From Alphaproteobacteria bacterium (GTDB taxonomy: Bacteria; Pseudomonadota; Alphaproteobacteria; MPNO01; UBA830), in the NCBI GenBank assembly GCA_964291215.2, contig OZ219791.1:2528001-2592000 (forward strand): 64,000 nt of DNA, written 5' to 3'. Position 1 is the first letter of the stretch. The number at the start of each line of letters is the position of its first letter. This document shows positions 9,325 through 35,741 of this stretch, piece by piece. The translations under genes were made by a program, and so were the position numbers. The notes under the pieces were generated by a model. It made no database searches and was not told the origin of the DNA. It worked only from the letters and a program-made list of their open reading frames with translations.

Positions 9325-9984
9325 CATGGCACTACATTCCGTTGAATTCTGTCAGCTTGTGAGGCGGCTCCTCGTGCGGCGGGTTCGACACCAGCTGCCG
9401 AGGAGATTTCGGCGACCTCGGCGGTGCGTGCCCTGTCGGTTGACGATCAATGCGCGCAGGCGCGTGGTGACCCTGGTTCCGCATGCTCTCGTGGATTGAT
9501 GTCTAGCACTTGTCGATGCCCCGCGCGGGGATCAGATGCACCGCGGCGAGCACGGCGATCAACAGGTGGGTGGCGATGCGCTGGCCGGGCGCAATCCGGG
9601 CTCGGATTTCAATGAACGGAAGGTGGCCTCGATATCCATGTCCCGAGCATCCATGTTTCCTGGCAAGGTTTTTGCGGGTGTCTGCGGTGATATTTTCTGT
9701 GGTTGTCCACAAGCGGTGTGGGATTTGCCCTGCGAGCGAGGCGACATGAAGCTTGTGGTCCCGGCGGCGGGTTGCCGTCCATTGGTCACGTGAACGCGGC
9801 TACCTTGCCGCCCCCGGGCACGTGACCGTCCGGGTTCCAGGTGTCCCAAGGCGGTTCGATCTCCTCGATGTCGGCCTCGACGATGATCTGCAGACATTCT
9901 CCCCAAGTCGTGTCGGAGACTGTCGAGACAGTCCCGATCGCGCTCTCGGCAGGGCCGTGTCTCCTTCGCTCACTCACCGGTGCT

Positions 9985-18006: not shown

Positions 18007-21000
18007 CGGCGCCATCGTGCTATCCCATGGAGCTGAAAAACACTCATGGAGGAAGCGAATGGACCTGCGACACACTACGACGATCGGGACTGTTTTGGAA
18101 CATCTGATCGCAAACGGAGCAACGGATCTGGGGCGGGTCTTTGGCCAGCTCTTCGAGCTTGCGATGCGCGCGAGCAGTACTTGAAAGCGGGCCACCGGAC
18201 ACCGGAACGACAGGGCTATGCCAACGGCTACAAGCGGATCGACACTCCCGCTGTTACCGTTCAGGTGCCAAAGACGGCCGGTCACGGGGACGACCCGTCC
18301 CCAGTCGCTTGAACGCGGCCAGCGATCTTCTCGCGCCGTCATGCTGGCCGTAGCCGAGATGTACATCAAGGGTGTTTCCACACGGCAAGATGTAATGCGC
18401 GAGTTCGGGAGCCTGTCCTCTTCTCAGGTCAGCCGGGCCACCAGGTTGCTCGACGAAGAACTCACCACCTGGCGCAACCGGTCCCTGATGAAATACCTGA
18501 TCCTGGATGCGCGCTACGAAAAAGCCCGCCATGACGGCGTTGTGCGCGATGTTGCAGTGCTCTCGGCCATCGGAATAGGGGCTGCAGGCACGTTCTGGGG
18601 CTCTCTGTGGCGCTCTACGAGGCCGAGATCCGAGCCTTCCTGGAAAGCTTGCTAGCCCTGCCATGTCATGAAAATTAGGTCTGGACGTGCCACTCGGTCT
18701 GCGCTAGCTTGCCGCCATGATGGCACAATCCAGCATTCTTCACACTCTACGCGAGGACGGGGCCCGGGCGCGCGTTGCTGCCATCCTGTCGCGGGAGCAG
18801 CACTCCGGCCGTCGGGCTGCGAGCCGTATGCGAAGAGTTTTCGTTCCGGGACGCGGCCGGGCGTTGGCAGCTGTCGAGTTGTCTGAAGGCCCTGACCACG
18901 TTGGCATCGTCGTATCCGGAGATCCGGCTTCCGGCACCGCAGGCTGCTGCCAACTCTCCGCGTCTTCTTGACGGAGAAGTGCCGGTCGGGGTGCCGTCCC
19001 GTCTGTCAGGGATGGCGCAGGTGCGGTTGTCGGTGGTGACCGAGGTTTCGGAGCGAACGGTATGGAACACGGCGCGCGAGCATCCTCATGGCATGACGAC
19101 GTTTGCCGGCTGTCAGGTGCGCTATCTTGTGACGTCGGAGCACGGGATCCTGGGTGCGGTCGGGATCTCGGCGGCGGCGTTGACGGGCCCGCGACCGCTG
19201 GATGGCGCCGTCCCGGCGACGGGATCATCGGGTGGTCTGTCTGAGTCGGTTTCTGCTTCGGGTGCGGTGCCGGGAGCCATGTTCTGGGGCGACTTCTCCG
19301 GCGTCTGCCGAGGGATTTCGAGGCCCGGTATGGATTCCGTCCCCTGGTGGTGGAAACCTATGCGGACGAGGGCTATGCTGGGACCTGCCTGCGGGCTGCG
19401 AACTTCGTATGTGCGGGGCGGACGAAGGGTCGTCAGGATCGTCACCATCGCGCTGCCAAGACGGTCAATGGATGCGCGGTCTGGATCGGCGACGCAAGCT
19501 GGGGGTGGGTCCGGTCGCTCCTGCCGGGGCCCGGAGACGGTCTGGATGCTGCGGTGTGGGCGGTGAACGAATTCGGAGGGGCGGGTGACAAGCGACTGTC
19601 GGCACGCCTGGTGAAGAGTGCGGCTCTTCTGGCCTCCTGTCCCGGATTCACGCGAGCACGGATGCCGACAACACGGCGATCAGTGCTTTCTACCGCCTGA
19701 TCGAGAAGCCGGTGGAGAGTGCGGTGGCGAACATTCTTGCTCCGCATCGGGAGCGCACGATCCGGGGCCAAACGACCGTGCTGGCGATTCAGCGACCTCA
19801 ATTTCTCCCGGCGGCCGGGATGCGAAGGTCTTCAGGTCATCGGCAAGAACCAGACCTCCTCGTCGGCCCGGGGTCTGCATGCGACGCTGGCGGAGACGGG
19901 GTTGCCGCTCGGGGTTCTGCGTCTGGGGTTCGATGCGGTGAAGCAGCGCTCCCCGGCGGCCGAGGAGCGGTTGAAGAGCCGGCGCGGAAGGCTTCAAGGA
20001 CATCGACGAAGCGGTCCGCGACGTCGGGAACAAGACGCGCGTGATCTCGGTCTGTGATCGGGAAGCGGACTTCTTCGAGCTGTCATCAACGTCTCAACCC
20101 ACGGGTCGGGCTTCTGCATGACCGGGTTCTCGGCAAGGGGCGCGCTGTTTGCAACCTTGAGCGCAGGCCCGGCGGCATCACCGTCGAGGTCGACGGCGAG
20201 CGTCCGAAGGCGAGCCGAACGAAGGCGCCCGACGCAAACGCGTGGCTCAGTGCGCACTGCGGTTCCGCCGCCTTGCCCTCCACCCTCGAAGGCCGCTCGC
20301 CCTTTCCGGTGTCCACATCATCGAAACCGATCCTCCCGAGAACCCGGTGCAGTGGTTCCTGCTCACCACGCTCAAGGTGCGCAGCGCCGAGGACGCCGCC
20401 AAGATGGTTGGCTTCTACCTCCAGAGGTGGAAGGTCGAAGACTTCTTCCGCGTCCTCAAGTCAGGCTGTCGCACCGAGTTCCTGCTGTTCCGGACCGCAG
20501 AACGACTGCAGCGGGCCATCGCCATCAACGCCGTCATCGCGCATCATGGTCATGACCCTGCGGCAGGTTCCCGACTGTGAGCCCGAGCTGATGTTCACCG
20601 ATCAAGAGCTGAGCTTCCTGCGCGACTACGCCGCCGAGAAGCGCATGACGCCCGCCTCGGGGATGCCGTCCGCCTGGTGGCCCATCTCAGCGGGTACCAG
20701 GATCGCAACCCGAGCCCGGACACCAAGTCATGTGGCACGGCGCGACCCAGCGCCGTTCTTGGCCATCAAGTCGGCTTCCGGGCCGGACAGCGGCAACCCT
20801 TGCAACACATTCAGGCCCTTGACGTCACGTCGTAATTGTCATTACTCGGCAGTGCTAGCCCGTGGCCTGCATGGTACGACCTTCATCGTCTCGGATGACC
20901 ATGCTGGGCTGAAAGCAGCACGACGCGCGGTGCTGGGCGCGGCGATGTGGCAGCGCTGCCAGTTCCACCTGGCGCAAAACGCCGTGCACCGAACAACGAC

Positions 21001-21402
21001 ATCAGGAAACGTATTGGAAAACAGCTCGGAGCCATGCGTCCTCACTCCAAACCGCCGAGGCTGAACTGGGCGCCCTCGTGGCCAGCTATCGCGACAAGCA
21101 TCCAAGCTTCGCAGACTGGCTGGAAAAGAATGCGGGGCTCGCTGTCTTCACCTTGCCTGATGCTCACCGCAAGCGCATGCGAACCTCGAACGGTATCGAG
21201 CGGCCGATCCAGCAAGAGCTCAAGCGGCGCACCTCCAAAGTCAGGGTCTTTCCGAACCCCGCCTCGTTGGAGCGCCTCTCAACCGCGGTCCTCGTCGAGA
21301 TCGACGAAAAATGGGAAACCGAAACCAAGGCATACATCAAATGGGAACAGCTCGATGACTGAGAGCTTCACGACAATTTCCAGACATCAGGTTGCGTAAT
21401 CC
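18006..21402 (+). mobile_element. IS256-family element copy 1 (left end lost; contains an IS4-family insertion)
   Basis: GYANGYK, AVAEMYIKGVSTR, YLILDARYEK, VSDDHAGLKAA, WQRCQFHL, MRTSNGIER; right IR ...TTTCCAGACATCAGGTTGCGTAATCC. Confidence 0.85.
18658..20852 (+). mobile_element. IS4-family (IS50/Tn5-like) element with N-terminal DUF4338-like domain, degenerate
   Basis: IRs CTGCCATGTCATGAAAATTAGG / CGTAATTGTCATTACTCGGCAG; TSD TGCTAGCC(C); WAVNEFGG..GDKRL, WFLLTT, YLQRWKVEDFFRVLKSGC; N-terminal VRYLV..LGAVG, VVCLSRFL, VETY..GTCLRAANF. Confidence 0.8.
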
Positions 21403-21818: not shown

Positions 21819-24800
21819 ATGGTGATTCGAGGAGGGGCGTCAGCCACGGCAGACCGTCCGCAATCCGACCCACTGAATGCCATCGTCGACAACTATGGCG
21901 GTCGCTTCGTCGGCGAATTCCTGCGCGAGCGGGTCGAACCCGGTTCAGACCTGTCGATCGTTTCGGCCTATTTCACGATCTACGCCTACGATGCCTTGCG
22001 CCATGCCCTGGAGAAGGCAGGAAGTACGCGTTTCCTCTACGGCGAGCCGAGCGCGGTTGGCGCGGTGGACCCCGGTGGGGACAATGCCAAATCCTTCCTC
22101 CTTAACGAAGACAGCGGCATGGAGCTAAGGCACGCCTTGGCGCAGAAACCGCTGGCGAGGGCCTGTGCCGAATGGGTCCGGAAGCAGGTCGAGATCAGGA
22201 CCATCGCCCGCGCCAACTTCCTGCATGGCAAGCTCTACCATGTCGGGCAAGAGGAAGGGGCTGCGGCCTTGGTGGGCAGTTCCAACTTCACACGGCGCGG
22301 GCTCGGCTTCGGCGCTGTGCCCAATGTCGAGCTCAATCTGGAGGTCCGCAGCGACGAGGACCGGGCGGAACTCCTCCGCTGGTTCGACGGCCTGTGGAAC
22401 GACAACAGCCTGACCCGCGACGCCAAGGCCGACGTGTTGGCTGCGCTTGAGCGACTGGGCCGGCCCTACGCTCCTGAGTTTGTCTATTACAAGACGCTCT
22501 TCCATGTCTTCGAGAGCTGGCTGGAGCGGCATGTGGAGCGGGACGGCCTGCTCCACGATGTCCACTTTCACAACACTGAAATCTGGAAGGCGCTCTACCC
22601 ATTCCAGCAGGACGGCGCGACCAGCGCGATCAACCGCCTCATGCGCTACAATGGCTGCATCGTCGCCGACAGCGTGGGCCTCGGAAAGACTTGGACGGCG
22701 CTGGCGGTCATCAAGTTCTTCGAGTTGCGTAATGAACGGGTTCTCGTCCTGTGCCCCAAGCGGCTCGAAGACAATTGGGTCCGCTACGCGGCGTGGGCGG
22801 CCTCGCGGAACAATCCCTTCGAGAAGGACCGCCTGAGATACGCGGTGCGGGCGCATACGGACCTGAGCCGCTATGAAGGCCGGGCAGGAAGCGTCGACCT
22901 CGCCCAGTTCAATTGGGGCTCGTTCGATCTGATCGTCATCGACGAGTCCCACAATTTCCGCAACGAGGGCCGGGACCGGTTCGATGAGGACGACAATCTC
23001 GTCAGGCGGAGCCGTTACAACCGCTTGCTGGAGGAGGTGTTGAAGAGCGGCGCGCGGACCAAGGTGCTGATGCTGTCGGCAACCCCGGTCAATACCAGCC
23101 TGCGGGACCTGCGCAACCAGATCTACCTGATGACCGAGAAGCGCGAGGACGCGTTCCGGGACGCGCTCGGCATCGGCAACATCCAGTCCATGTTCGGCGT
23201 GGCCCAGCGCGAGTTTCAGCAGTGGGAAGCGGCCCGGCCCGCCGGGCGACGCCCGGACAAGGCGGCCCTTCTGGAGAGGCTCGGCGTGGATTTCCTGTCG
23301 TTGCTGGACGCGGTCTCGTTAGCACGCTCGCGCGACCATATCCGCCGCTACTATCCTGAGGTGGAGACAGCCATCGGCGGTTTCCCCGACCGGGCGCAAC
23401 CGCTGAACCTGTACCCTCGGACGGACAGCAAGGGCGCGTTTTCCTATGACGACATGCACCGGCGGATCGGGGATTTCCGCCTGGCGGTCTATATGCCGTC
23501 GCAATATCTGAAGGACACATCGAGCCTCGACGAGGAGAAGGCGAAGCTGCGCTTCGACCAGCGCGACCGCGAGCGCTGGCTGATCGGCATGATGCGCGTG
23601 AACCTTCTGAAGCGCCTCGAAAGCTCGGTGCATTCCTTCACGCTCACCATGGCGCGCATCCTCGAAAAGATGGACGCCCTCGACGACCTGATCGGGAGAT
23701 GGCGGGAGCGCGGACCGGTCGAAGAGATAGACGCCCGGCCGGACGACGACGAGGAAGATGAGGAATTCGCCATCGGCAGGGGCCGTCGTTACCGGCTGGA
23801 CGAACTAGATGTCGACCGCTGGCAAGAGGACCTGCGCGAGGACCGGCGGGTCTTCCGGGACCTCTATGAGCGGGCGCAGCGTGTAACCGCCGAACGCGAC
23901 GATAAATTGGCTACCCTGAAACGGGTGCTGCGGGAGAAGGTCGAGGCCGCGCCGAAGGACAAGGACGGGCGGGCGAACCGCAAGGCGCTCGTCTTCACGA
24001 CCTTCGCCGATACCGCGAGCTATCTCTATGACCACCTCAAGGGCTGGGCGCGGAACGGCCTCGGCGTCCATATGGCGTTGGTGACCGGCGGAAATGGCAA
24101 CCGCAGCAGTTCGGGCGAAACCGGCTTCATGGAAATCCTGGCCCGGTTCGCACCGAAGGCGCAGCAGGCCGAAAGCGGTGGCGGCGAGATCGACATCGTG
24201 ATCGCAACCGATTGCCTGTCGGAGGGACAGAACCTCCAGGACTGCGACCTGGTGGTGAACTACGACATCCACTGGAACCCGGTGCGGCTGATGCAGCGTT
24301 TCGGGCGGATCGACCGGCTTGGCAGCCGCAACAGGCGCGTTTCCATGACCAATTTCTGGCCGACTGAGGACCTCGAACGCTATCTGGACCTGAAGAACCG
24401 GGTCGAGGCGCGCATGGCGCTGGCGGATGCGGCGGCAACGGGCCTCGACGACCCGCTCAACCGGGACGACCGGACGGAGGACGAGCACAAGGAGGCGGTC
24501 CAGTTGGAACTCGCCTTCCGCGGCCGGCAGCTGACGCGCATGCGAGAGGAGATTCTCGATGTCGAGGAAGCCGAGGACGGCATTACCCTGAACGACCTCA
24601 CGCTGGACGATTTCATCGCCGACCTCTTGAACTTCATCCAGCAGAACCGGGCCGCCATCGAGGCCGCGCCGCTCGGCATCCACGCAGTCGTGGACAATGG
24701 CGCTCCGGCGGGACAGAACCTTCCGGCCGACCGGATACAGCCCGGCGCGATCTTCTGCCTGCGACGCAACGGAGATGCGGCGGCGCGCACCCCGAACCGC

Positions 24801-25169
24801 CTCTGGCCTTACTTTCTCGTCTATGTCCGGGACGATGGAAGCGTGCATTACACCTTCGGGCAGGCCCAACGGTGCCTCGCTCTATTCCGGGCGCTCGCTG
24901 CCGGCCGATCCGATACCTTGCAGGCGCTGGAGGATGCGTTCGACCGGGAAACGCAGCAGGGCCGGTGCATGAAGAAATACGATGCCCTGCTCGCTGCGGC
25001 GCTGCGCAGTATCGCCGGCACTTTCAGGGATGCGGAACTCGCCGGGCTGGGCCGCGACCGCGGCGCCGTGTTGACGGAGAAGCCGCAAACGCCGGACCCT
25101 GCAAGGGACTTCACCCTGGTGACATGGCTGGTCATCGCGAAGAAAGAGGCGGACAGACGCAATGGCTGA
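21819..25169 (+). CDS. Phospholipase-D-type nuclease fused to an SNF2-family helicase (defence-associated)
   Basis: PLD HxK motif LHGKLY...GSSNFT; Walker A ADSVGLGKT; DESH; LSATP; SEGQNLQD; QRFGRIDR; intact 1116 aa. Confidence 0.9.
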   Translation: MVIRGGASATADRPQSDPLNAIVDNYGGRFVGEFLRERVEPGSDLSIVSAYFTIYAYDALRHALEKAGSTRFLYGEPSAVGAVDPGGDNAKSFLLNEDSGMELRHALAQKPLARACAEWVRKQVEIRTIARANFLHGKLYHVGQEEGAAALVGSSNFTRRGLGFGAVPNVELNLEVRSDEDRAELLRWFDGLWNDNSLTRDAKADVLAALERLGRPYAPEFVYYKTLFHVFESWLERHVERDGLLHDVHFHNTEIWKALYPFQQDGATSAINRLMRYNGCIVADSVGLGKTWTALAVIKFFELRNERVLVLCPKRLEDNWVRYAAWAASRNNPFEKDRLRYAVRAHTDLSRYEGRAGSVDLAQFNWGSFDLIVIDESHNFRNEGRDRFDEDDNLVRRSRYNRLLEEVLKSGARTKVLMLSATPVNTSLRDLRNQIYLMTEKREDAFRDALGIGNIQSMFGVAQREFQQWEAARPAGRRPDKAALLERLGVDFLSLLDAVSLARSRDHIRRYYPEVETAIGGFPDRAQPLNLYPRTDSKGAFSYDDMHRRIGDFRLAVYMPSQYLKDTSSLDEEKAKLRFDQRDRERWLIGMMRVNLLKRLESSVHSFTLTMARILEKMDALDDLIGRWRERGPVEEIDARPDDDEEDEEFAIGRGRRYRLDELDVDRWQEDLREDRRVFRDLYERAQRVTAERDDKLATLKRVLREKVEAAPKDKDGRANRKALVFTTFADTASYLYDHLKGWARNGLGVHMALVTGGNGNRSSSGETGFMEILARFAPKAQQAESGGGEIDIVIATDCLSEGQNLQDCDLVVNYDIHWNPVRLMQRFGRIDRLGSRNRRVSMTNFWPTEDLERYLDLKNRVEARMALADAAATGLDDPLNRDDRTEDEHKEAVQLELAFRGRQLTRMREEILDVEEAEDGITLNDLTLDDFIADLLNFIQQNRAAIEAAPLGIHAVVDNGAPAGQNLPADRIQPGAIFCLRRNGDAAARTPNRLWPYFLVYVRDDGSVHYTFGQAQRCLALFRALAAGRSDTLQALEDAFDRETQQGRCMKKYDALLAAALRSIAGTFRDAELAGLGRDRGAVLTEKPQTPDPARDFTLVTWLVIAKKEADRRNG

Positions 25170-28100
25170 GGATTTGTTGCGGAAGATATCCAAAGCGCTT
25201 GCTGCGCTGGCCGGCGAGTCGCCGCTGCGCGAAGGCGCAAAGGGAGTGTTGAACGCGCTCGGCTACGAAAGCGCACGGACGGCAGAGGCGGGAAGCGTCG
25301 AAGAATTTCTGGACCGCTTCAAGCCCGAAAAGCCGCTGACCGACAAGCAACGCCGCCTGTTCGACGACTGGCGCAATGTCGAAATCGTGTTCCAGGTCAC
25401 CGGCGACGAGATCGAACTCCGGCCGGACCAAACCGGTCTGTTCAACGGTCCCGGTTTCGACCGAGGACGCACCAAGTCTTTCCTGTTCCTCTCTGTGGAT
25501 ATGCAGTCGGCCGACTATCCCCGCACCCATCTGGCGCAGACAACGCGCGCCATCAATCGGCTCTTCAGGATGCCGGTCATCGTCCTGTTCCGACACGGCT
25601 CGGCCCTGACGCTGGCCGCCGTCCACCGGCGCGCCCGCAAGCGGGACGATAATCGGGACGTGCTGGAGAAGGTGACGCTGGTCAAGGATATCCGCCTTCA
25701 GGACCCACACAGGGCGCATGTCGAGATTCTGGCCGATCTGAGCCTGAAAAGCATGATCGGGGCAGGCGTCCGCAGCTTCGACGGTCTGCATGAAAAATGG
25801 GAACATACACTCGACATCGAGGCGTTGAACAAGCGCTTCTACAAGGAACTGTTCCAGTGGTTCGAGCGGGCGGTGGAGGAGTGCAGCTTCCCGGACGACG
25901 GCGCTGGGAAAGACAGCGACCAGCGCCATGTCATCCGGTTGATCACGCGGCTCCTGTTCATCTGGTTCCTGAAGGAGAAGGGGTTGGTCCCGGAGGACTT
26001 GTTCGAGGAACGATTCGCGCGCGAACGACTCAAGGATTATGAGCCCGAGAGCACCGGCTATTACCGGGCCGTGCTCCAGAACCTGTTCTTTGCGACGCTG
26101 AACACCGAGATCGACAGGCGCGCCTTCAGCACTCGGACACCGGAGTCTCGCCGCGATTTCAATAGATACCGCTACCGGGACCTGCTCACGGACCCGGAGG
26201 GTTTTGTCGAAAAGTTGAGACAGGTTCCGTTCGTAAATGGAGGACTGTTCGACTGCCTGGACGACTTCGCGGCGGCAGGCGAGAGTGGGCGGCGCATTGA
26301 TGCCTTCTCCGACTCCGACGATATCGACACCCAAGCCGGCCGGGACCTGCATGTGCCTGCGTGGTTGCTGCTCGGCGAGTCGGACGGCCTGTTCGCCCTG
26401 TTCCGCCATTACAAATTCACGATCGAGGAGAATACGCCGCTCGACACCGAGGTTGCGCTGGACCCGGAACTGCTCGGCCGCGCGTTCGAGAACCTGCTGG
26501 CCGCCTACAACCCGGAGACGCGCGAGACGGCGCGTAATGCCACCGGTTCCTATTACACGCCGCGCCAGGTGGTGGACTACATGGTCCGCGAGGCGCTCAC
26601 CGAGGCGCTGATCTCAAAATCGGAGCCGGCCGACGGCGATACCGACTTCTGGCGCGAGCGTATCGACTATCTGCTGGATCATTCGGCCGCGATGGACGAT
26701 GCGCAGAAACTCTTCTCTGATCCCGAGAAGAGGGCGCTTGTCGACGCCATTGCGGGACTCACGACGCTCGATCCCGCAGTCGGATCCGGCGCCTTCCCGA
26801 TGGGTATCTTGCAAACGCTTACCCTGGCGCTGCGCCGCCTCGACCCGGGGAACGCCCTTTGGGAGACGTTTCAGAGAGAGCGGGCGGCGGCGCGAGCCGA
26901 ACAAGCGTTCGACACCGAGGATCGGCGGCAGCGCGACAACGAACTGACCGAGATCAGCCCTACGTTCGACCGGTATCGGCAGACCGATTTCGGACGCAAG
27001 CTGTACCTGATCCAGAACGGCATATACGGCGTCGATATCCAACCCATCGCCTGCCAGATCGCCAAGCTGCGTTTCTTCCTCTCGCTCGCCATAGAGCAGA
27101 ACCGGAATCCGGCCGAACCAAATCTGGGCATCAAGCCGCTGCCCAATCTGGAAACCCGGTTCGTCGCGGCGGATACGTTGCGCCGGCTCGACCGGCCGGC
27201 GCAGGGGGAGCTCGGTCGCACCGAAAATGTAAGAAGGCTGGAGGCTGAACTGAAGGCCAATCGCGAGCGGTACTTCCATGTGGGCGACCGGCAGGCGAAG
27301 CGGAATTTACGGAAGCGGGACGCCAAACTGCGCCGACAACTGGCCTCGGACCTCCGGCAGGCCGGTTTCCAAGAGAGCGCCGCTGAAAACATAGCCCGGT
27401 GGGACCCTTACGACCAGAACGAGTACGCCGACTGGTTTGACCCGGAGTACATATTCGGCATTTCCAGCGGCTTTGACGTCGTAATCGGCAACCCGCCCTA
27501 CATCCAGTTGCAGAAGAATGGCGGGTTGTTGGGCAAGCGGTACGGGAACGCCGACTATGAAACCTTTGCGCGTACAGGGGATATCTACCAACTTTTCATC
27601 GAGTGCGGTTGCAGGCTTCTCAGTCCCGGTGCGGGCGCGCTGGCTTACATCACGTCCAACAGTTGGCTGAAGGCGGAATACGGACGGCGCCTTCGACAGT
27701 ACCTTGCCAACCGGCACACCCCGCTCATGCTGATCGAGATGGGAAAGGATGTGTTCGACAATGCGATCGTCGATACGGCGGTTCTGATCGTCCGAAACGG
27801 CAAGGCCCGGTCTGTGACCTGTCGGGCGGTGGACATCGACCGGACATCGCACCGTCGATTCCCTCCCCCGCAAGGAGACTGGGGGACGTTGCAGCCGGAA
27901 GGCGAGCGGCCATGGATGGCGCTTTCATCCGTCGAACGCACCGTGATGGAGAAGATGGAAGCGGTCGGGACACCCCTGAAGGATTGGGATATCTCCATTT
28001 ACTATGGAATCAAAACCGGCTTCAACGACGCCTTCATCGTGGACCAGACCACACGGGACGCCCTCGTCGCGGCAGACCCCAGATCGGCGGAGCTTCTGAA

Positions 28101-28782
28101 GCCCATCCTCAGGGGCCGCGATATAGCGCGTTACCGTGCAAATTGGGCCGGGCTTTACCTGATATCAACATTTCCGTCTCTCAATCTAGACATCGATGCA
28201 TATCCAGCCATCAAGCGACATCTTTTGTCTTTTGGAAAAGAACGTCTTGTCCAGGATGGACGCCGTCTGCCGGGAGGAGGTCAATCTAGGAAGAAGACTT
28301 CCAACGCCTGGTACGAGATTCAGGATACTTGCGCTTACCATGAGGAATTTGGAAAAGCGAAACTGTTTTGGATGCACATGACCCCCTATGGGAGGTTCGT
28401 ACTGGCCGATCCAGATGTCGTATGCAATCAAAAGTGCTTCATGGTAACGAGTATGAACCTAGAATACCTATGTGCTGTCCTCAATAGCAAGCTGATTACC
28501 TGGCTTGTAAGACGCACTGCCGTAACAACTGGAATGGGACTTCCCCAGTGGGACAAATTCACCGTTGAACGCGTCCCAGTTGTGCAACCAGATCACCTTG
28601 TCATGGCTGAGATGAAGGTCATCGTGAAATCAATTCTTGCTGCCATAGAGAGCGACGATGTTCACGAAATATCCAAACTCCAGCAGAAACTCAACGATCA
28701 AGTCTTTGAACTTTATCAGCTCACGGAATTTGAGCGTGCGGCTATTTCGCGAGCCATTAATGACTTGTCGCCGACTCTATAA
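25162..28782 (+). CDS. Eco57I/Type IIG-like N6-adenine DNA methyltransferase with C-terminal TaqI-like target recognition domain
   Basis: PFVNGGLF, GSYYTPR, DPAVGSGAF (motif I), GVDI, VIGNPPY (motif IV), YYGIKTG, LRGRDI, LCAVLNS; overlaps the upstream gene by 8 bp. Confidence 0.92.
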   Translation: MAEDLLRKISKALAALAGESPLREGAKGVLNALGYESARTAEAGSVEEFLDRFKPEKPLTDKQRRLFDDWRNVEIVFQVTGDEIELRPDQTGLFNGPGFDRGRTKSFLFLSVDMQSADYPRTHLAQTTRAINRLFRMPVIVLFRHGSALTLAAVHRRARKRDDNRDVLEKVTLVKDIRLQDPHRAHVEILADLSLKSMIGAGVRSFDGLHEKWEHTLDIEALNKRFYKELFQWFERAVEECSFPDDGAGKDSDQRHVIRLITRLLFIWFLKEKGLVPEDLFEERFARERLKDYEPESTGYYRAVLQNLFFATLNTEIDRRAFSTRTPESRRDFNRYRYRDLLTDPEGFVEKLRQVPFVNGGLFDCLDDFAAAGESGRRIDAFSDSDDIDTQAGRDLHVPAWLLLGESDGLFALFRHYKFTIEENTPLDTEVALDPELLGRAFENLLAAYNPETRETARNATGSYYTPRQVVDYMVREALTEALISKSEPADGDTDFWRERIDYLLDHSAAMDDAQKLFSDPEKRALVDAIAGLTTLDPAVGSGAFPMGILQTLTLALRRLDPGNALWETFQRERAAARAEQAFDTEDRRQRDNELTEISPTFDRYRQTDFGRKLYLIQNGIYGVDIQPIACQIAKLRFFLSLAIEQNRNPAEPNLGIKPLPNLETRFVAADTLRRLDRPAQGELGRTENVRRLEAELKANRERYFHVGDRQAKRNLRKRDAKLRRQLASDLRQAGFQESAAENIARWDPYDQNEYADWFDPEYIFGISSGFDVVIGNPPYIQLQKNGGLLGKRYGNADYETFARTGDIYQLFIECGCRLLSPGAGALAYITSNSWLKAEYGRRLRQYLANRHTPLMLIEMGKDVFDNAIVDTAVLIVRNGKARSVTCRAVDIDRTSHRRFPPPQGDWGTLQPEGERPWMALSSVERTVMEKMEAVGTPLKDWDISIYYGIKTGFNDAFIVDQTTRDALVAADPRSAELLKPILRGRDIARYRANWAGLYLISTFPSLNLDIDAYPAIKRHLLSFGKERLVQDGRRLPGGGQSRKKTSNAWYEIQDTCAYHEEFGKAKLFWMHMTPYGRFVLADPDVVCNQKCFMVTSMNLEYLCAVLNSKLITWLVRRTAVTTGMGLPQWDKFTVERVPVVQPDHLVMAEMKVIVKSILAAIESDDVHEISKLQQKLNDQVFELYQLTEFERAAISRAINDLSPTL
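27961..28151 (+). repeat. Outer inverted repeat, left arm (191 bp)
   Basis: Exact reverse complement of 29343-29533; encodes AVGTPLKDWD...RYRANWAG. Confidence 0.95.
28329..28351 (+). repeat. Inner inverted repeat, left arm (23 bp)
   Basis: TTGCGCTTACCATGAGGAATTTG, exact reverse complement of 29170-29192; encodes CAYHEEF. Confidence 0.9.
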
Positions 28783-29169
28783 CTTGTATCTCCTCTGCGG
28801 AGATTCCATAGATCTCATAGACTAACTCATCAATCTGCTTCTCGATTTTGTACGAATGGCTATCAACAGACGAAGTGGCAGAACGAGCTTCCTCGACCAA
28901 TTTACGCAGGCGTATCGCTGTAGACGGGCATGGCTTCGCTACAGGCACTGACTCCATGTATACTTTCTTCCACCGAGATACGCCCATACCCGAAGTGGGC
29001 GCAGTCTTCAGAATGTACCAGTGTGCGAGTCGTGAGTTAAGAATTGCACAGAGGTAGCTCATTTGCTTGCCGGTGATCATGAATGCCGTAGCTTCGATGA
29101 ACATTCTGCTATCGTCGTACGCGAATCTGCCTCGGTCGACCAGTTCTATCCAGATGACCTTCTCGGATG

Positions 29170-29192
29170 CAAATTCCTCATGGTAAGCGCAA
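29170..29192 (-). repeat. Inner inverted repeat, right arm (23 bp)
   Basis: CAAATTCCTCATGGTAAGCGCAA. Confidence 0.9.
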
Positions 29193-29342
29193 TTACGGAG
29201 ATTGTAAGGCGTGATGCCCTGATCTTGGCGATGCTCAAGATGCTCGATGAAACGGTCTAGATGGGCCTTGACCGCTGGATACTCATCAGCATTGATCGGG
29301 GGCACATCAGCATATCCGTTGTGCGTGTCGATCAACCAAAGG

Positions 29343-29533
29343 CCGGCCCAATTTGCACGGTAACGCGCTATATCGCGGCCCCTGAGGATGGGCTTCAGAA
29401 GCTCCGCCGATCTGGGGTCTGCCGCGACGAGGGCGTCCCGTGTGGTCTGGTCCACGATGAAGGCGTCGTTGAAGCCGGTTTTGATTCCATAGTAAATGGA
29501 GATATCCCAATCCTTCAGGGGTGTCCCGACCGC
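29343..29533 (-). repeat. Outer inverted repeat, right arm (191 bp)
   Basis: Exact reverse complement of 27961-28151. Confidence 0.95.
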
Positions 29534-29535
29534 GA

Positions 29536-30498
29536 ATGAGTTATCTAGACAATGCATGGAATACGGGGGATACGTGCTGTGGGGATGTATTGCGGAAGGC
29601 AGCCAAGTCTGAAAATACGCGGGCCGCGTATGAGAAGGGCTGGCGGCGTTTCGCGTCTTGGTGCCAAAGCGTCGATGTGGTGCCCCAAGACGCCACCGCA
29701 GATGACGTGGTCAGGTTTCTCATTGCCATGGCGAGCGGAAGCGGGGGAGGCAGCCGCAAGCCACTCGCGCTGAATACTCTGAGGCTCTACCGCAGCGGGT
29801 TGAACGATTGGTGGTGCGGGAGGGAGATGCCGTCGCCCGCGTCGGCAAATGTCGTGGACGAGGTGCTGCAAGGCCTGGCAAGACTTCGTGGCGAGAAGCC
29901 GCGTCGGGTAAAGGCGCTTCGTGAGCATCATCTGCTTGCGATGTTGGAGTCGTGCGGGAATGGTTTGCACGGACGACGGGATGCGGCAGTCCTGTCCCTG
30001 GGCTTCGCCGCGGCGCTCCGGCGGTCGGAATTATGTCAATTGCGAATGGAGGACCTTGAGCGCAAAAGCGGCGAAGGAATGATGGTTCATTTGCGGCGCT
30101 CAAAAACCGACACCCGGGGTACAGGACAAAAGGTGGCGCTACTCAAGGGGAAGACGATCAAACCTGTCGCGCATGTAGAAGGCTGGCTTCAGGCTTCAGG
30201 CATAAAGAACGGGTTTGTCTTTCAGACGTTGTTGCGCGGCGGTGTCGCGTCAAGGCGCCCGCTCGACCCCGGCGATGTTGCTCGGATCGTAAAGCGACAT
30301 ACCCGAAGGATAGGTCTCGATCCCCGGGAGTATTCCGGGCACTCGCTGCGAGCCGGGTTCGTAACAAGTGCAGCGGTCCACCACGCAAGGATCGACAAGA
30401 TCATGGAGGTGACCCGCCACAGAAGTGCAGAAACGGTACTGAAATACATGCGCGACGAGGAGGCGTTTCTCGATCATGCGGGGGCATCGTTTCTTTGA
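29536..30498 (+). CDS. Tyrosine recombinase (Cre/XerD-like), putative invertase
   Basis: SENTRAAY..W N-domain; catalytic R (ALRRSEL), K (RSKTD), HxxR (HSLRAG), H (TRHRS), Y (LKYMR); ATG 2 bp beyond the outer repeat. Confidence 0.9.
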   Translation: MSYLDNAWNTGDTCCGDVLRKAAKSENTRAAYEKGWRRFASWCQSVDVVPQDATADDVVRFLIAMASGSGGGSRKPLALNTLRLYRSGLNDWWCGREMPSPASANVVDEVLQGLARLRGEKPRRVKALREHHLLAMLESCGNGLHGRRDAAVLSLGFAAALRRSELCQLRMEDLERKSGEGMMVHLRRSKTDTRGTGQKVALLKGKTIKPVAHVEGWLQASGIKNGFVFQTLLRGGVASRRPLDPGDVARIVKRHTRRIGLDPREYSGHSLRAGFVTSAAVHHARIDKIMEVTRHRSAETVLKYMRDEEAFLDHAGASFL

Positions 30499-31643
30499 CG
30501 CTGCTTCTGGAAGTCCGTTGACTAGCCTTCTCCACAGCCACTCGAAGAGCATGAAGACTCGGCAGCGGCGGCTCGTCCGGCTCCGCCGCCAACTCGCCCC
30601 GCTTCCAGCGCCACGCCGCCGTTGCCGGGAATCTCTCCTGCCACCACCGGCGCCACCGCAGGGGGCAGAAGGTACTGTAACTTGATGTCTGGAAATTTGT
30701 CTGAGGTTTGCGCTTTGAGGCGTTTCACTGGGGGGGCTAGCCCCCCAGTGAAGCGCGGCGCCATCGTGCTATCCCATGGAGTTGTAAAACCTTCATGGAG
30801 GAAGCGAATGGACCTGCGACACACTACGACGATCGGGACTGTTTTGGAACATCTGATCGCAAACGGAGCAACGGATCTGGGGCGGGTCTTTGGCCAGCTC
30901 TTCGAGCTTGCGATGCAAATCGAGCGCGAGCAGTACTTGAAAGCGGGCCACCGGACACCGGAGCGACAGGGCTATGCCAACGGCTACAAGCGGATCGACA
31001 CCCCCGCTGTTACCGTTCAGGTGCCAAAGACGGCCGGTCACGGGGACGACCCCCCCCCCAGTCGCTTGAACGCGGCCAGCGATCTTCTCGCGCCGTAGCC
31101 GAGATGTACATCAAGGGTGTTTCCACGCGGCAGGATGTAATGCGCGAGTTCGGGAGCCTGTCCTCTTCTCAGGTCAGCCGGGCCACCAGGTTGCTCGATG
31201 AAGAACTCGCCGCGCAACCGGCCCCTGATGGAATACCTGGATGCGCGCTACGAAAAAGCCCGCCATGACGGCGTTGTGCGCGATGTTGCAGTGCTCTCGG
31301 CCATCGGAATAGGGGCGCTGACGAGCGCAGGCACGTTCTGGGGCTCTCTGTGGCGCTCTCCGAGGCCGAGGTCCGAGCCTTCCTGGAAAGCTTGCTAGCC
31401 CTGCATGGTACGACCTTCATCGTCTCGGATGACCATGCTGGGCTGAAAGCAGCACGACGCGCGGTGCTGGGCGCGGCGATGTGGCAGCGCTGCCAGTTCC
31501 ACCTGGCGCAAAACGCCGTGCAGCACGCACCGAACAACGACATTAGGAAACGTATTGGAAAACAGCTCGGAGCCACGCCTCCTCACTCCAAACCGCCGAG
31601 GCTGAACTGGCCGCCCTCGTGGCCAGCTATCGCGACAAGCACC

Positions 31644-33023
31644 TGTCGCTAACAAGCGATATGTCCGGTGGATGTAACATGCGATCTGTCCGGTTCAGAT
31701 GCTTCATAAATGAGGAAGCCGATGAATCGGACAAGAGTGTTACAGGAATTACGGATTATGAAGTTTGAAGAGTTGTATTCACGAAGGCAGGCGAAGCAGT
31801 TGAGCCAGGAGCAGGCCGCCGAGATTCTTGGTGTATCTGTGCGTTCGGTGCGTCGCTGGGAGGAGCGCTACGAGGCGGAAGGAGCCGAAGGTCTTTATGA
31901 CAAGCGCCTTGGCCGTCTGGCTGGCAACCGCGTTCCGGTCGATACGGTGACGGAGGTTCTTGAGTTGTTCGACACCCGCTACTGGGACTACACGGCCAAG
32001 CATTTCCACGAGAAGCTGGTCAAGGACCACGGGTTCACGCACAGCTACAACTGGGTGCGCCTGACGCTTCAGGCCAACGGCCGGGCGGCCCCGCGCCGCG
32101 GTGCGCATCGCCGCAAGCGTGCTCCGCGGCCGATGGCGGGCATGATGCTGCACCAGGACGGCTCCACTCACGAATGGGTGCCCGGACAGTCGTGGGATCT
32201 GATCGTGACCATGGACGATGCCACCAGCGAGAGCTACTCGGCCTTCTTCGTCCCCGAAGAGGGCACGATGAGCACCTTTCAGGGCATCCAGGAGGTGATC
32301 GAGGCCAAGGGCCTGTTCTGTTCGCTTTACGCCGATCGGGGGTCGCACTACTGGCACACAGCCGGCGGCAAGGTCGACAAGGACAACCTGACCCAGGTGG
32401 GCCGGGCGCTCCAGCAGCTCCGCATCGAACTGATCCCCGCCTATTCGCCTGAGGCGCGCGGCCGCTCGGAGCGCATGTTCGGCACACTGCAGAAGCGTCT
32501 GCCGCAGGAATTGCGTACACAGGGCATCGAGACGATGGACGAAGCCAATCTCTTCCTCAAGGATGTCTTCCTGCCCGATCACAACGCCCGGTTCATGCGC
32601 AAGCCGGAAGATGGGGGATCGGCTTTCATGGACTTCGCCGGCAACGTTGGCGACATCCTGTGCGTGCAGGAAGACCGCGTCGTCGGCAACGACAATACGG
32701 TGCGCTACAAGGGACGCGTGCTGCAGATCGCGAGCCACCGCCACCATTTCGTCAAGGCGCGCGTCAGGGTGCACGAATATCCTGACGCCTCGCTGGCCGT
32801 GTTCCACGGCCCCATGTGCATCGGCCGGTATCAGTCTGACGGCCAACCGGCCGGGAAGGAGAAAACGATCGAGAAGGCTGCGTGAACCGCTTCGGCGCGG
32901 GCCGAACGCAGCCGGTCAAGCCTGCGGTCGCTACCGCTCCCTTCGGCTTGACCGGCTGCGCCACCAACAGAAGCGGACAAACCGCATGGTACCTAGACCG
33001 GACAACTCAGAATGTTGTCGACA
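31644..33023 (+). mobile_element. IS1202-family (IS481-related, formerly ISNCY) element with 17-bp TSD
   Basis: TGTCG...CGACA ends with internally repeated TGTCCG; direct repeat CTATCGCGACAAGCACC at 31627-31643 and 33024-33040. Confidence 0.88.
31710..32885 (+). CDS. IS1202/IS481-like DDE transposase
   Basis: HTH (QAAEILGVSVRSVRRW), MLHQDGS, MDDAT, YADRGSHY, SPEARGRSERMFGTLQ; open 391 aa. Confidence 0.88.
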   Translation: MRKPMNRTRVLQELRIMKFEELYSRRQAKQLSQEQAAEILGVSVRSVRRWEERYEAEGAEGLYDKRLGRLAGNRVPVDTVTEVLELFDTRYWDYTAKHFHEKLVKDHGFTHSYNWVRLTLQANGRAAPRRGAHRRKRAPRPMAGMMLHQDGSTHEWVPGQSWDLIVTMDDATSESYSAFFVPEEGTMSTFQGIQEVIEAKGLFCSLYADRGSHYWHTAGGKVDKDNLTQVGRALQQLRIELIPAYSPEARGRSERMFGTLQKRLPQELRTQGIETMDEANLFLKDVFLPDHNARFMRKPEDGGSAFMDFAGNVGDILCVQEDRVVGNDNTVRYKGRVLQIASHRHHFVKARVRVHEYPDASLAVFHGPMCIGRYQSDGQPAGKEKTIEKAA

Positions 33024-34268
33024 CTATCGCGACAAGCACCCAGGCTTCGCAGACTGGCTGGAAAACAATGCGGGGCTCGCTGTCTTCACCTTGCCCGATG
33101 CTCACCGCAAGCGCATGCGAACCTCGAACGGCATCGAGCTCCAGCAAGAACTCAAGCGGCGCACCTCCAAAGTCAGGGTCTTTCCAAACCTTGCCTCGTT
33201 GGAGCGCCTCTCAACCGCGGTCCTCGTCGAGATCGACGAAAAATGGGAAACCGAAACCAAGGCATACATCAAATGGGGTATCTACTCACCCCTAGTTGGG
33301 TTCTGATTGGTCGTAGTGCTCGTTGATGATGTCTGCGGCTTTTCCGTCGAGGGCGATCTGGGTGGCGACGAGTGGGTTGTAGCCGAGTGCGGCCATGGAG
33401 GTGAGGTAGCTTGAGCCTCGGCACCATGCTTTTGCGTGGAGCGGAAGCATCCGGACACCTTGACCTTTGCCATCCTGATCTTCTGTTCTCCGGCATTGTT
33501 GGTGAAGCTGACGTCGGGGTTGTCTGTGAAGCGCAGGTTTTCGTGTTTCACGAGACGCAGGTTGTGCGCGTTTGCGATGCGTTTTCTTTTCGTCGGCGGC
33601 GGGATGTCGGGCAGTTCCTTGGCGCCCTGATGGTACGGTAGCGCTTGCGCACGGCCCGGCGTCGTTCAGGGTCTTGGATGCGCTCTTGTTGACCTTGTGG
33701 CAGACTTCGCGGAGCAGGCTCTTCATCAGTCGCGCCCAGCGGTAGCCTCGACGACGAAGGTCAGTTCGCGCAGCAGGTGGCTGCCGCACAACTGGTGGCT
33801 ACACTGGCCCATGTACGAGGCCCAGCAGTCCAGGACGCCCTTGTAGCACGGGATGATGCCGATCTCTTGCCTCCCGGCCGCGCTTGCGGTGCGGGAACTT
33901 GCACGTCAGGGTTCCGACGACATGGAGCCACTTACTGTTGGTCCGAAATCGTCGACATGCAGGGCCGGGCGTTGCAGGAGGTGCGCCACGGCGGCCTCCG
34001 ACGCGAGCGCATCGTGAAAGCATAGCCGAGGCAGGTTGCCTCGGAGAGCCTGATGCCGGAGGTCGCCTGCACGAGCGCGACGGCACGACGCAGGGACAGC
34101 ATCTGGGCGACCAGCAGGTTGATGACGAGGGCCTGGATGCCGATGCCGTACTGCACGGGATGTTGTCGGGGAACCGGCCCCGGGCCTTGCACTTCGGGCA
34201 TTCCTTGATCTCGGCGCGGCGCTCGACGACCTCGAACACAATGTCATAGAGGACGCGGCGCTCCCGAT

Positions 34269-35741
34269 CGATTACGCAACCTGATGTCTGGAAATTGTCG
34301 TGAAGCTGATCGAGCTGTTCCCATTTGATGTATGCCTTGGTTTCGGTTTCCCATTTTTCGTCGATCTCGACGAGGACCGCGGTTGAGAGGCGCTCCAACG
34401 AGGCAAGGTTTGGAAAGACCCTGACTTTGGAGGTGCGCCGCTTGAGTTCTTGCTAGAGCTCGATGCCGTTCGAGGTTCGCATGCGCTTGCGGTGAGCATC
34501 GGGCAAGGTGAAGACAGCGAGCCCCGCATTGTTTTCCAGCCAGTCTGCGAAGCTTGGGTGCTTGTCGCGATAGCTGGCCACGAGGGCGCCCAGTTCGGCC
34601 TCGGCGGTTTGGAGTGAGGAGGCGTGGCTCCGAGCTGTTTTCCAATACGTTTCCTGATGTCGTTGTTCGGTGCGTGCTGCACGGCGTTTTGCGCCAGGTG
34701 GAACTGGCAGCGCTGCCACATCGCCGCGCCCAGCACCGCGCGTCGTGCCGCTTTCAACCCGGCATCCGAGACGATGAAGGTCGTACCATGCAGGGCTAGC
34801 AAGCTTTCCAGGAAGGCTCGGACCTCGGCCTCGGAGAGCGCCACAGAGAGCCCCAGAACGTGCCTGCAGCCCCTATTCCGATGGCCGAGAGCGCTGCAAC
34901 ATCGCGCACAACGCCGTCATGGCGGGCTTTTTCGTAGCGCGCATCCAGGATCAGGTATTTCATCAGGGGCCGGTTGCGCCAGGCGGCGAGTTCTTCGTCG
35001 AGCAACCTGGTGGCCCGGCTGACCTGAGAAGAGGACAGGCTCCCGAACTCGCGCATCACATCTTCGGCCAGGGCTCTTCTTTTTCCCGGTTTCGTCCGAC
35101 GAGGGGGCGTTGTAGGCAGATCTGGAGGTCCATTCAGGAGCGGACTTCGTTGTCGATATGCCGGTTTCGATCTTGAGACGGTGCCACCAACTTCAAGAAC
35201 GGCCACTCTGACACGGTTGTCTGCCGCCGACCGCGACAACAGAATGGTCCTGCATCTTCGGCCTGCCGTGTGGAAACACCCTTGATGTACATCTCGGCTA
35301 CGGCCACGGCGCGAGAAGATCGCTGGCCGCGTTCAAGCGACTGGGGATAGAACGGGTCGTCCCCGTGACCGGCCGTCTTTGGCACTTGAACGGTAACAGT
35401 CCCGACGGGGGTGTCGATCCGCTTGTAGCCGTTGGCATAGCCCTGTCGCTCCGGTGTCCGGTGGCCCGCTTTCAAGTGCTGCTCGCGCTCGATTTGCATC
35501 GCAAGCTCGAAGAGCTGGCAAAAAACCCGCCCTAGATCCGTTGCTCCGTTTGCGATCAGATGTTCCAAAACAGTCCCGATCGTCGTAGTGTGTCGCAGGT
35601 CCATTCGCTTCCTCCATGAAGGTTTTACAACTCCATGGGATAGCACGATGGCGCCGCGTTTCACTGGGGGGCTAGCCCCCCAGTGAAACGCCTCAAAGCG
35701 CAAACCTCAGACAAATTTCCAGACATCAAGTTACAGTACCC
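34269..35741 (-). mobile_element. IS256-family element copy 3 (degenerate; contains a MITE)
   Basis: Both IRs present; near-identical to copy 2 in reverse orientation. Confidence 0.87.
35069..35252. mobile_element. 184-bp MITE with CAGG ends and 10-bp TSD
   Basis: Ends CAGGGCTCTTCT / AGAATGGTCCTG; TSD CATCTTCGGC (35059-35068, 35253-35262); absent from the other IS256 copies. Confidence 0.8.

Follow-up and report, generated by a model that had tools for sequence, protein, structure and literature searches.

The window analysed here is a stretch of 64,000 nucleotides from an alphaproteobacterial genome (contig OZ219791.1, positions 2,528,001 to 2,592,000), and it contains a restriction-like defence locus consisting of a PLD-SNF2 gene, a Type IIG-like methyltransferase (MTase) gene, a silent inverted copy of the target recognition domain (TRD) of this MTase and a tyrosine recombinase gene. 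Two nested pairs of inverted repeats divide the TRD-coding DNA into modules, denoted A1 and A2 in the expressed gene and B1 and B2 in the silent copy. The features are as follows, in coordinates of the window:

21819..25169, plus strand: PLD(HKD)-SNF2 helicase-nuclease gene, 1116 aa, with Pfam domains PLDc_2, SNF2-rel_dom, ResIII and Helicase_C
25162..28782, plus strand: MTase gene, allele A1A2, 1206 aa, Eco57I-type gamma-class N6-adenine MTase with a TaqI_C TRD
27961..28163, plus strand: left arm of the outer repeat, exact part 27961-28151, encoding VGTPLKDW...RYRANWAGL, with GCGTTACCGTG at 28128-28138
28164..28328, plus strand: module A1, 165 nt, variable first part of the TRD tail, with the basic loop SRKKTSNAWYEIQDT
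28329..28351, plus strand: left arm of the inner repeat, 23 nt exact, CAYHEEF codons
28352..28782 (through the stop codon), plus strand: module A2, TRD beta-strand core, then C-terminal helices
28757..29557, minus strand: silent TRD copy, a convergent open reading frame (ORF) of 266 aa, TaqI_C copy without the methylase domain
28757..29169, minus strand: module B2 of the silent copy
29170..29192, minus strand: right arm of the inner repeat, 23 nt exact
29193..29330, minus strand: module B1 of the silent copy, 138 nt, DTHNGYADVPP...ITPYNLRN
29331..29533, minus strand: right arm of the outer repeat
29536..30498, plus strand: tyrosine recombinase gene, 320 aa from the ATG at 29536, Pfam Phage_integrase 7.6e-15

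The 1206-aa MTase is recognized by Pfam Eco57I (5e-33) and TaqI_C (1e-11), its best PADLOC model being REase_MTase_IIG (2.6e-132), with the PLD nuclease encoded in the upstream gene. The latter matches the PADLOC model 'HKD+Snf2' (E 7e-107), its 3' end overlaps the MTase start by 8 nt, and its product is presumed to be the restriction or motor partner of the MTase. The convergent 266-aa copy, which is promoterless and 5'-truncated, has the TRD part alone in common with the MTase; the whole genome holds two TRD copies only, both at this locus. The recombinase ORF begins 3 nt past the right arm of the outer repeat, and no sigma-70-like promoter was found for either the silent copy or the recombinase (1.2 expected).

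The locus has three features of a Type II/IIG MTase-TRD inverton, namely a truncated inverted copy, in-phase repeats and an adjoining recombinase gene. The outer inverted repeat (27961-28163 and 29331-29533) spans 203 nt with four mismatches (28152 and 28157-28159) and is exact over 191 nt. Inside it lies a 23-mer, TTGCGCTTACCATGAGGAATTTG, at 28329-28351, which recurs without a mismatch as its reverse complement at 29170-29192, as reported in an earlier note on this DNA. The two tails read it in one and the same phase (T + TGC GCT TAC CAT GAG GAA TTT + G, read C-A-Y-H-E-E-F). The tails 3' of the outer repeat are otherwise divergent, with 67 of 189 aligned residues (35%) and 275 of 567 codon-aligned bases (48.5%) identical, and the exact run of 22-23 nt at CAYHEEF is followed by next longest runs of only 8, 6, and 6 nt. 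Identical residues outside the motif, M and W aside, use the same codon in 21 of 53 cases. As the earlier note had stated, the shared peptides YLCA.LNS and GMG differ at synonymous sites. When synonymous codons were resampled with both proteins held fixed, a run of at least 22 nt arose in 35 of 5000 trials (P ~0.007). The 23-nt identity therefore exceeds chance, yet taken alone it is not overwhelming, as no motif of the family is more conserved than CAYHEEF.

Inversion in silico at either or both repeat pairs leaves an open frame in all four states: 1206 aa in the reference (A1A2), 1191 aa with the outer segment inverted (B1B2), 1200 aa with the inner segment inverted (A1B2) and 1197 aa with both inverted (B1A2). 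Every inversion product is in frame and both repeat pairs hold the same reading phase. These lengths, and the module sizes of 177 and 150 nt and of 454 and 436 nt as delimited in the earlier note, were reproduced; the 3' ends of A2 and B2 overlap by 26 nt. We consider it probable (roughly 0.65) that the 23-bp repeat on the CAYHEEF codons is a second crossover site, nested in the outer repeat of a TRD inverton and giving rise to four alleles.

Nested repeats recur at two related loci, each likewise with two distinct inverted-repeat pairs inside the TRD-coding region. At the orthologous locus of a genome from the same genus (G002), whose recombinase is 74% identical to that of the window, the outer repeat is exact over 171 nt and encloses a second exact repeat of 17 nt, TAATTGCGCTTACCATG, placed on the same codons. 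A recombinase-based contig search returned four loci, including one in a Nitrospinaceae metagenome-assembled genome (MAG; L020, recombinase 76% identical), one in a Chloroflexota MAG (L021, 49%) and one with a recombinase of 31% identity at which TRD repeats were not found (L022). L020 is intact, with a PLD-SNF2 gene, a 1240-aa methylase, a 264-aa silent copy and the recombinase. Its two TRD copies are only ~78% alike in the 'outer repeat', and exact islands of 29 nt (RYRANW codons), 15 nt (CTGTGCTTACCATGA, CAYH) and 13 nt remain between them. In the window, G002, and L020 the recombinase gene directly adjoins the repeats.

The modules of these loci are found in different combinations. Two types of module 1 are common to the window, G002, and L020, with DNA identities of 0.67-0.80 within and 0.47-0.56 between types. 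G002 pairs B1 with a second module C2 and A1 with D2, and L020 does the reverse, pairing B1 with D2 and A1 with C2; the module-2 cores of the G002-L020 cross pairs have identities of 0.76 and 0.62, as against 0.36-0.54 for all other pairs. This swapped pairing is the relation that an inner inversion would create. A further, short contig (G662:C192:1-2074; L106/L112), with a 69% identical recombinase, starts inside the conserved TRD repeat, so that its cassettes could not be read; the assembly of a third alphaproteobacterial genome seems to have broken here at an invertible locus.

Full-length homologues in the wider family also carry hybrid combinations. The family comprises 5281 proteins at E <=1e-10 among 7716 candidates, of which P0007 (0.78/0.75) and P0011 (0.78/0.71) have B1- plus A2-like tails, and P0012 (0.83/0.65) and P0029 (0.69/0.61) A1- plus B2-like tails; natural genes can therefore be complete with a hybrid tail. 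No other motif of the tail is as well conserved as CAYHEEF, and across 121 sequences its Y is kept in 120, F in 121, A in 114, H in 106 and C in 80. Among 80 metagenome loci with a related TRD, 79 had no inverted copy in the sequence examined. The earlier note had raised the possibility that the 23-mer is equally conserved at noninvertible loci, and this was not found: of 84 loci scanned, 30 have a recognizable motif and no inverted copy, and none of these carries TGCGCTTACCAT. Synonymous sites of the motif vary at such loci, those encoding CAYH reading, for example, TGCGCCTATCAC and TGTGCCTATCAT. The control loci, being 29-51% identical, are more distant than L020 and make a fair, not an ideal, control. 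In a sample of the phylum, 5 of 401 genomes including that of the window (G000) had a TRD match; the other four were single-copy, with the motif pattern unmatched.

A junction of the predicted hybrid type is present in public sequencing data. Three runs of one study (X1-X3), available as Logan contigs and not as reads, were compared with positions 27400-30000 of the window; the share of words present is 0.96 in X1, 0.38 in X2 and 0.20 in X3, and such contigs drop rare variants. Record 10 of X2 (953 nt, depth 17.6) follows 28030-28328 on the plus strand and then runs from 29192 down to 28539 on the opposite strand. At this joint (28328|29192) 23 letters fit both sides, and the shorter side measures at least 255 letters. 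After B2 the second part continues into the 3' part of A2, reverse-complemented, and is therefore the inner segment of the window, inverted. Record 10 differs from the window by 21 letters of 299 in its A1 part and by 4 letters in the second part; a neighbouring contig of the same strain has a depth of 15.7. The A1-23-mer-B2 junction that the earlier note had proposed looking for is accordingly present in a related strain, and the X2 contig establishes that the rearranged form exists in nature, which does not by itself place its origin within a clone.

Other contigs break at the repeat. In X2, an A2-like contig of depth 259 (record 12) starts at 28329 and a B1-like one (record 13) ends at 29172; in X3, an A1-like contig (record 17) ends at 28351 and record 18 spans 28322-29192. 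Such contig ends on the 23-mer are to be expected if the repeat has more than one neighbouring sequence in X2 and X3. X2 also contains a further joint between opposite strands (28163|29209, side 31) and short joints of the 'skips' kind.

The enzyme is a gamma-class N6-adenine MTase with a TRD of the CamA/MmeI/TaqI type, in which an Eco57I domain is followed by the shared TRD fold. An AlphaFold2 model of residues 905-1206, built from 71 homologues, has a mean pLDDT of 86 and a pTM of 0.69. The closest fold is that of CamA (Foldseek E 3e-12; VIA Z 19.5, model 1-283 on chain residues 302-577), and MmeI is also matched (Foldseek 2.4e-7; VIA Z 11.6, model 1-295 on 605-892), as are M.BseCI (Z 18.5), PglX/BrxX (13-15), BpuSI (12.3), Type I HsdS (~10) and M.TaqI (~8.5-8.9). 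A phmmer search of tail A against PDB sequences returned nothing at E up to 1; the family profile aligns to CamA across the whole TRD (E 8e-27). In the model, CAYHEEF (model residues 153-159) is predicted to form a short helix between a long loop (126-155), the part modelled with least confidence, and the strands of module 2, and module 2 would be closed by three long helices.

The base contacts reported for CamA are Arg425 to G1, Trp439 to C1/A2, Arg441 to A2, Gln438 to T2/T3, Asn346 to A3, Ser472/Ala473 to T4 and Ile517/Tyr521 to the A4 region (PMC8187626). In the profile alignment, Gln438, Trp439, and Arg441 have as their counterparts Q1054, D1055, and A1058, where module 1 ends and the motif begins, and Arg425 is matched within the GGGQSRKK loop of A1. 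The counterparts of Ser472/Ala473 and Ile517/Tyr521 are in module 2 (VVCNQKC and GMGL..W.K), and Ile349 is matched to GIKTGFNDAF in the constant outer repeat; the equivalent of Asn346 should stand beside the latter, its exact place not being fixed by residue count. By this analogy, A1 or B1 would set the reading of base pairs far from the target adenine and A2 or B2 that of near ones, with one further putative base-contact loop, GIKTGFNDAF, in the constant region. On the same homology, modules 1 and 2 would carry different base-contact loops, and the four alleles should then have four motifs.

In MmeI the TRD-N part (621-745) reads base pairs 1-2 and the TRD-C part (746-825) pairs 3-6, according to the available description (PMC4833311). 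The end of CAYHEEF should fall near MmeI 745/746, as estimated from aligned ranges and spacing (CamA 425 and 439; MmeI 723 and 737) and not from a residue-level alignment.

A short core, TTACCRTG, is a candidate recombinase recognition sequence. At three loci (window, G002, and L020) the sequence of the inner site is [T/C]TG[C/T]GCTTACCATG and that of the outer repeat at its inner end is GCGTTACC[G/A]TGCAAA[T/C]TGGGC; TTACCRTG is present in both. It has seven copies in the window, five of them within 28131-29363, against 1.22 expected, and none of 100 shuffles reached seven; TTACC[AG]TG was absent from all 83 copies of the RGRDI.RY motif at other loci. An exact k-mer scan of the inner site against the outer repeat returned only the 8-mer AATTTGCA, which is at chance level. 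The core may be regarded as a lead and not as a result. A fifth copy of TTACCATG lies at 28440-28447 on the minus strand, inside module A2 and ~100 nt from the left arm of the inner repeat.

We propose that A1 would be joined to B2, and B1 to A2, when the inner 818 bp (28352-29169) invert, and that this, combined with inversion of the outer segment (28164-29330), would yield the four in-frame alleles. The adjacent tyrosine recombinase would catalyse both inversions, possibly by way of the TTACCRTG core common to both repeat pairs, and the switch would run within clonal populations. By homology to CamA and MmeI, the four alleles would methylate, and direct restriction to, four different motifs. 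This mechanism, a recombinase-driven inner inversion with four specificities, we likewise consider probable. The nested repeat pairs, the four open frames, a contig inverted at the 23-mer and the same layout in G002 and L020 are direct observations and, together with the contig breaks at the 23-mer, the swapped module pairing of G002 and L020 and the hybrid tails of natural homologues, they support in essentials the four-state switch of the earlier note. A more specific version holds that the inner site splits one TRD at the equivalent of the MmeI TRD-N/TRD-C boundary, right after a base-contacting loop, that the motifs are combinatorial (two modules for outer and two for inner base pairs) and that both crossover sites lie in x-Tyr-His/Arg codons around TTACCRTG; this we put forward tentatively, as taken as a whole it is less likely than not.

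The main rival is that the 23-mer is a breakpoint of occasional homologous recombination, or of horizontal cassette exchange between strains, so that the hybrids form an evolutionary mosaic and each clone has a two-state inverton working through the outer repeat. We consider this unlikely, while giving it real weight. The strain of the hybrid contig differs from the window by 7% in A1, no hybrid appears in X1, and module combinations vary among distant taxa, for which rare events would suffice. The variable cassettes (28100-29300) have a G+C content of 46-50%, as against ~60-65% (about 62%) for the rest of the methylase gene and its neighbours, which suggests that the cassettes are exchanged horizontally; the position of the locus among transposase fragments is likewise as for exchanged DNA. 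A length of 23 bp is, moreover, near the lower limit for RecA-dependent exchange. On the other hand, exact identity persists at both sites in L020 though the repeat copies are only ~78% alike, which argues for selection on the sites, and contigs end exactly on the repeat in two samples, as if both junctions coexisted. The recombinase gene adjoins the repeats in all three loci, and a published Type IIG locus is described as making four genotypes from two repeat pairs (PMC13064476).

It is also conceivable that the 23-nt identity merely reflects the strong conservation of the peptide, perhaps with gene conversion acting locally, that it has no role in rearrangement and that the hybrid contig is an assembly or library chimera. 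The conservation of CAYHEEF in the 121 sequences is in accord with this, as is the fact that the evidence from the runs comes from contigs only, and seven identical codons out of seven have a chance of ~0.002-0.007, which is not negligible in a genome scan. We nevertheless regard this explanation as improbable. The assembler's word length was presumably 31 letters, as in the index; because the 23-nt repeat is shorter than this, a contig crosses it only on words holding both flanks. The depth of the hybrid contig also matches that of its neighbour, synonymous sites of the motif vary freely at loci without an inverted copy, and the nested repeat recurs in G002 and L020.

Several observations weigh against a clonally active four-state switch. 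Part of the DNA identity is to be expected from the most conserved motif of the family, and a P of ~0.007 is not vanishing. X1, possibly the sample of the window itself, has one unbroken contig over 28122-29372 with no hybrid, which is weak evidence because contigs drop rare variants. Coexisting forms in one clone were not seen among the contigs of X1-X3, all of which derive from a single study. The hybrid may be a fixed strain difference and not the product of active switching, because its A1 part differs from the window at 21 of 299 letters. Outer inversion was not seen in these contigs, in which the 191-nt repeat exceeds the assembler's words. The genotypes represented are A1A2/B1B2 (window) and A1-B2 (X2); B1-A2 was not seen, the reciprocal junction not having been fully searched.

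Among the related loci, both module-1 copies of G002 are frameshifted (L013, G002:C1:5864000-5880000; 8800-9000 and 9800-9980) with the repeats intact, which reflects either decay of the system or indel errors of a single-contig assembly, and L021 has no exact repeat of at least 11 nt. The TTACCRTG core was spotted by eye after the fact. The mapping of base contacts is a sequence-profile alignment through loops, where the model is least confident (block 151-160, pLDDT 62).

Switches of this kind have been described elsewhere. In the Type IIG restriction-modification (RM) systems of Bacteroides fragilis, TRD inversion is reported for PVR2 and PVR3, and two inverted-repeat pairs in PVR3 produce four genotypes (Eng Microbiol 2025; PMC13064476). 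As there, it is the TRD-coding sequence of a single-polypeptide MTase-TRD enzyme that would invert here; in contrast, the present locus belongs to another phylum and has a PLD-SNF2 partner gene and a tyrosine recombinase. The passage describing PVR3 does not relate the repeats to TRD substructure or to motifs. Milman et al. (2023; PMC9881135) describe programmed inversions, confirmed by long reads, in Type II RM genes homologous to Campylobacter jejuni Cj0031 with adjacent PLD and SNF helicase coding sequences. Their loci include B. ovatus CP083813.1 and S. mutans CP044495.1, with coexisting variants in the long reads. The text also reports inversions in DISARM-like and BREX PglX genes, and more than two variants at some loci. 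The Type II RM loci resemble ours in architecture, with a PLD-SNF2 gene beside a large Eco57I-type MTase whose C-terminus is inverted.

The likeness extends to Type I hsdS shufflons, which have nested or multiple inverted repeats of unequal length in specificity genes, a neighbouring recombinase and combined half-specificities, as in the six-phase SpnD39III system of S. pneumoniae (PMC4190663, PMC4948785). The subunit in hsdS shufflons has two TRDs, which are exchanged whole; here the split falls inside a single TRD, and the specificity module is fused to the MTase. Nested inversions in a large gamma-class MTase of a defence system are also reported for the BREX type 1 PglX of L. rhamnosus (PMC9881135), where, by that account, a middle swap takes two inversions and one-inversion forms lack the C-terminus, whereas every state here has a full frame. 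MmeI and CamA have the same TRD fold, with separate loops or subdomains reading the outer and inner base pairs of an asymmetric site (PMC4833311 and PMC8187626, in the portions describing the contacts), and differ in being fixed enzymes without a switch; the MmeI residue match is estimated from ranges and spacing only.

In the literature on sub-TRD shuffling in single-TRD enzymes, we found nothing more specific than PMC9881135 and PMC13064476, their figures and repeat table aside. The four-state design is already in print, because the B. fragilis four-genotype Type IIG switch and the hsdS shufflons have been published, and any claim to novelty is weakened accordingly: the present locus is a further example and not a new kind. 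With the phenomenon documented in Bacteroides, its value lies in the good resolution of the example, in the comparative support for it and in a structural prediction that can be tested. It adds another phylum and a tyrosine recombinase, evidence that both sites are maintained, a hybrid in public data and a structural prediction for each module.

With one recognition domain serving both methylation and restriction, specificity can change without killing the host, and recombining two halves of one TRD doubles the repertoire obtained from two cassettes. If the modular reading is true, the locus amounts to a natural experiment in which the TRDs of gamma-class MTases are modular below the level of the domain. 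Natural matched chimeras help to assign loops to base pairs in domains of the CamA, MmeI, and PglX type, which specificity engineering seeks to do. In annotation, any short exact repeat that falls on conserved codons of a silent cassette should be scored as a possible extra crossover site.

Inverted cassettes were also encountered together with serine recombinases. The Lactococcus plasmids pJM1F (L103, NZ_CP016750.2) and pUCCL629A (L104, NZ_PP589677.1) each have a DEAD/DEAH helicase gene, an N-6 methylase and an inverted TaqI_C cassette, and both carry the same Mpi-family serine invertase. Exact repeat islands of 23, 22, 20, and 11 nt are present in pJM1F; the 20-mer lies on PILRGK codons and the 11-mer on GRF codons, and these two delimit a segment that is swapped between pJM1F and pUCCL629A. 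At the metagenome locus L042 (5390-6382), a 1163-aa methylase is followed by an inverted 109-aa cassette covering the second part of module 2 only, and by a serine recombinase; no clear repeat was found there.

Assignment of the locus to other defence systems was considered and rejected. As a BREX type 1 PglX the MTase scores 72 bits with BREX_1_MTaseX against an NCBIfam cut-off of 500, and a Pfam scan of 12 neighbouring ORFs gave no match to BREX families. As for DISARM class 1, the PLD-SNF2 partner reaches 151 bits with the NCBIfam DrmD model against a cut-off of 610, and DrmMI is weak in PADLOC (2e-20).

The defence locus sits in an island rich in insertion sequences (IS), flanked by three fragments of Mutator-family transposases (20054-21064, 32563-33306, and 35134-35703) and a helix-turn-helix-rich ORF (31710-32885). 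A palindrome of G and C runs, CACTGGGGGG(G)CTAGCCCCCCAGTG, occurs at 30726-30750 and again at 35662-35685, two copies against none expected in 100 shuffles, with a weaker copy near 31038-31062; this is possibly a palindromic element of the repeated kind, or else the end of an IS.

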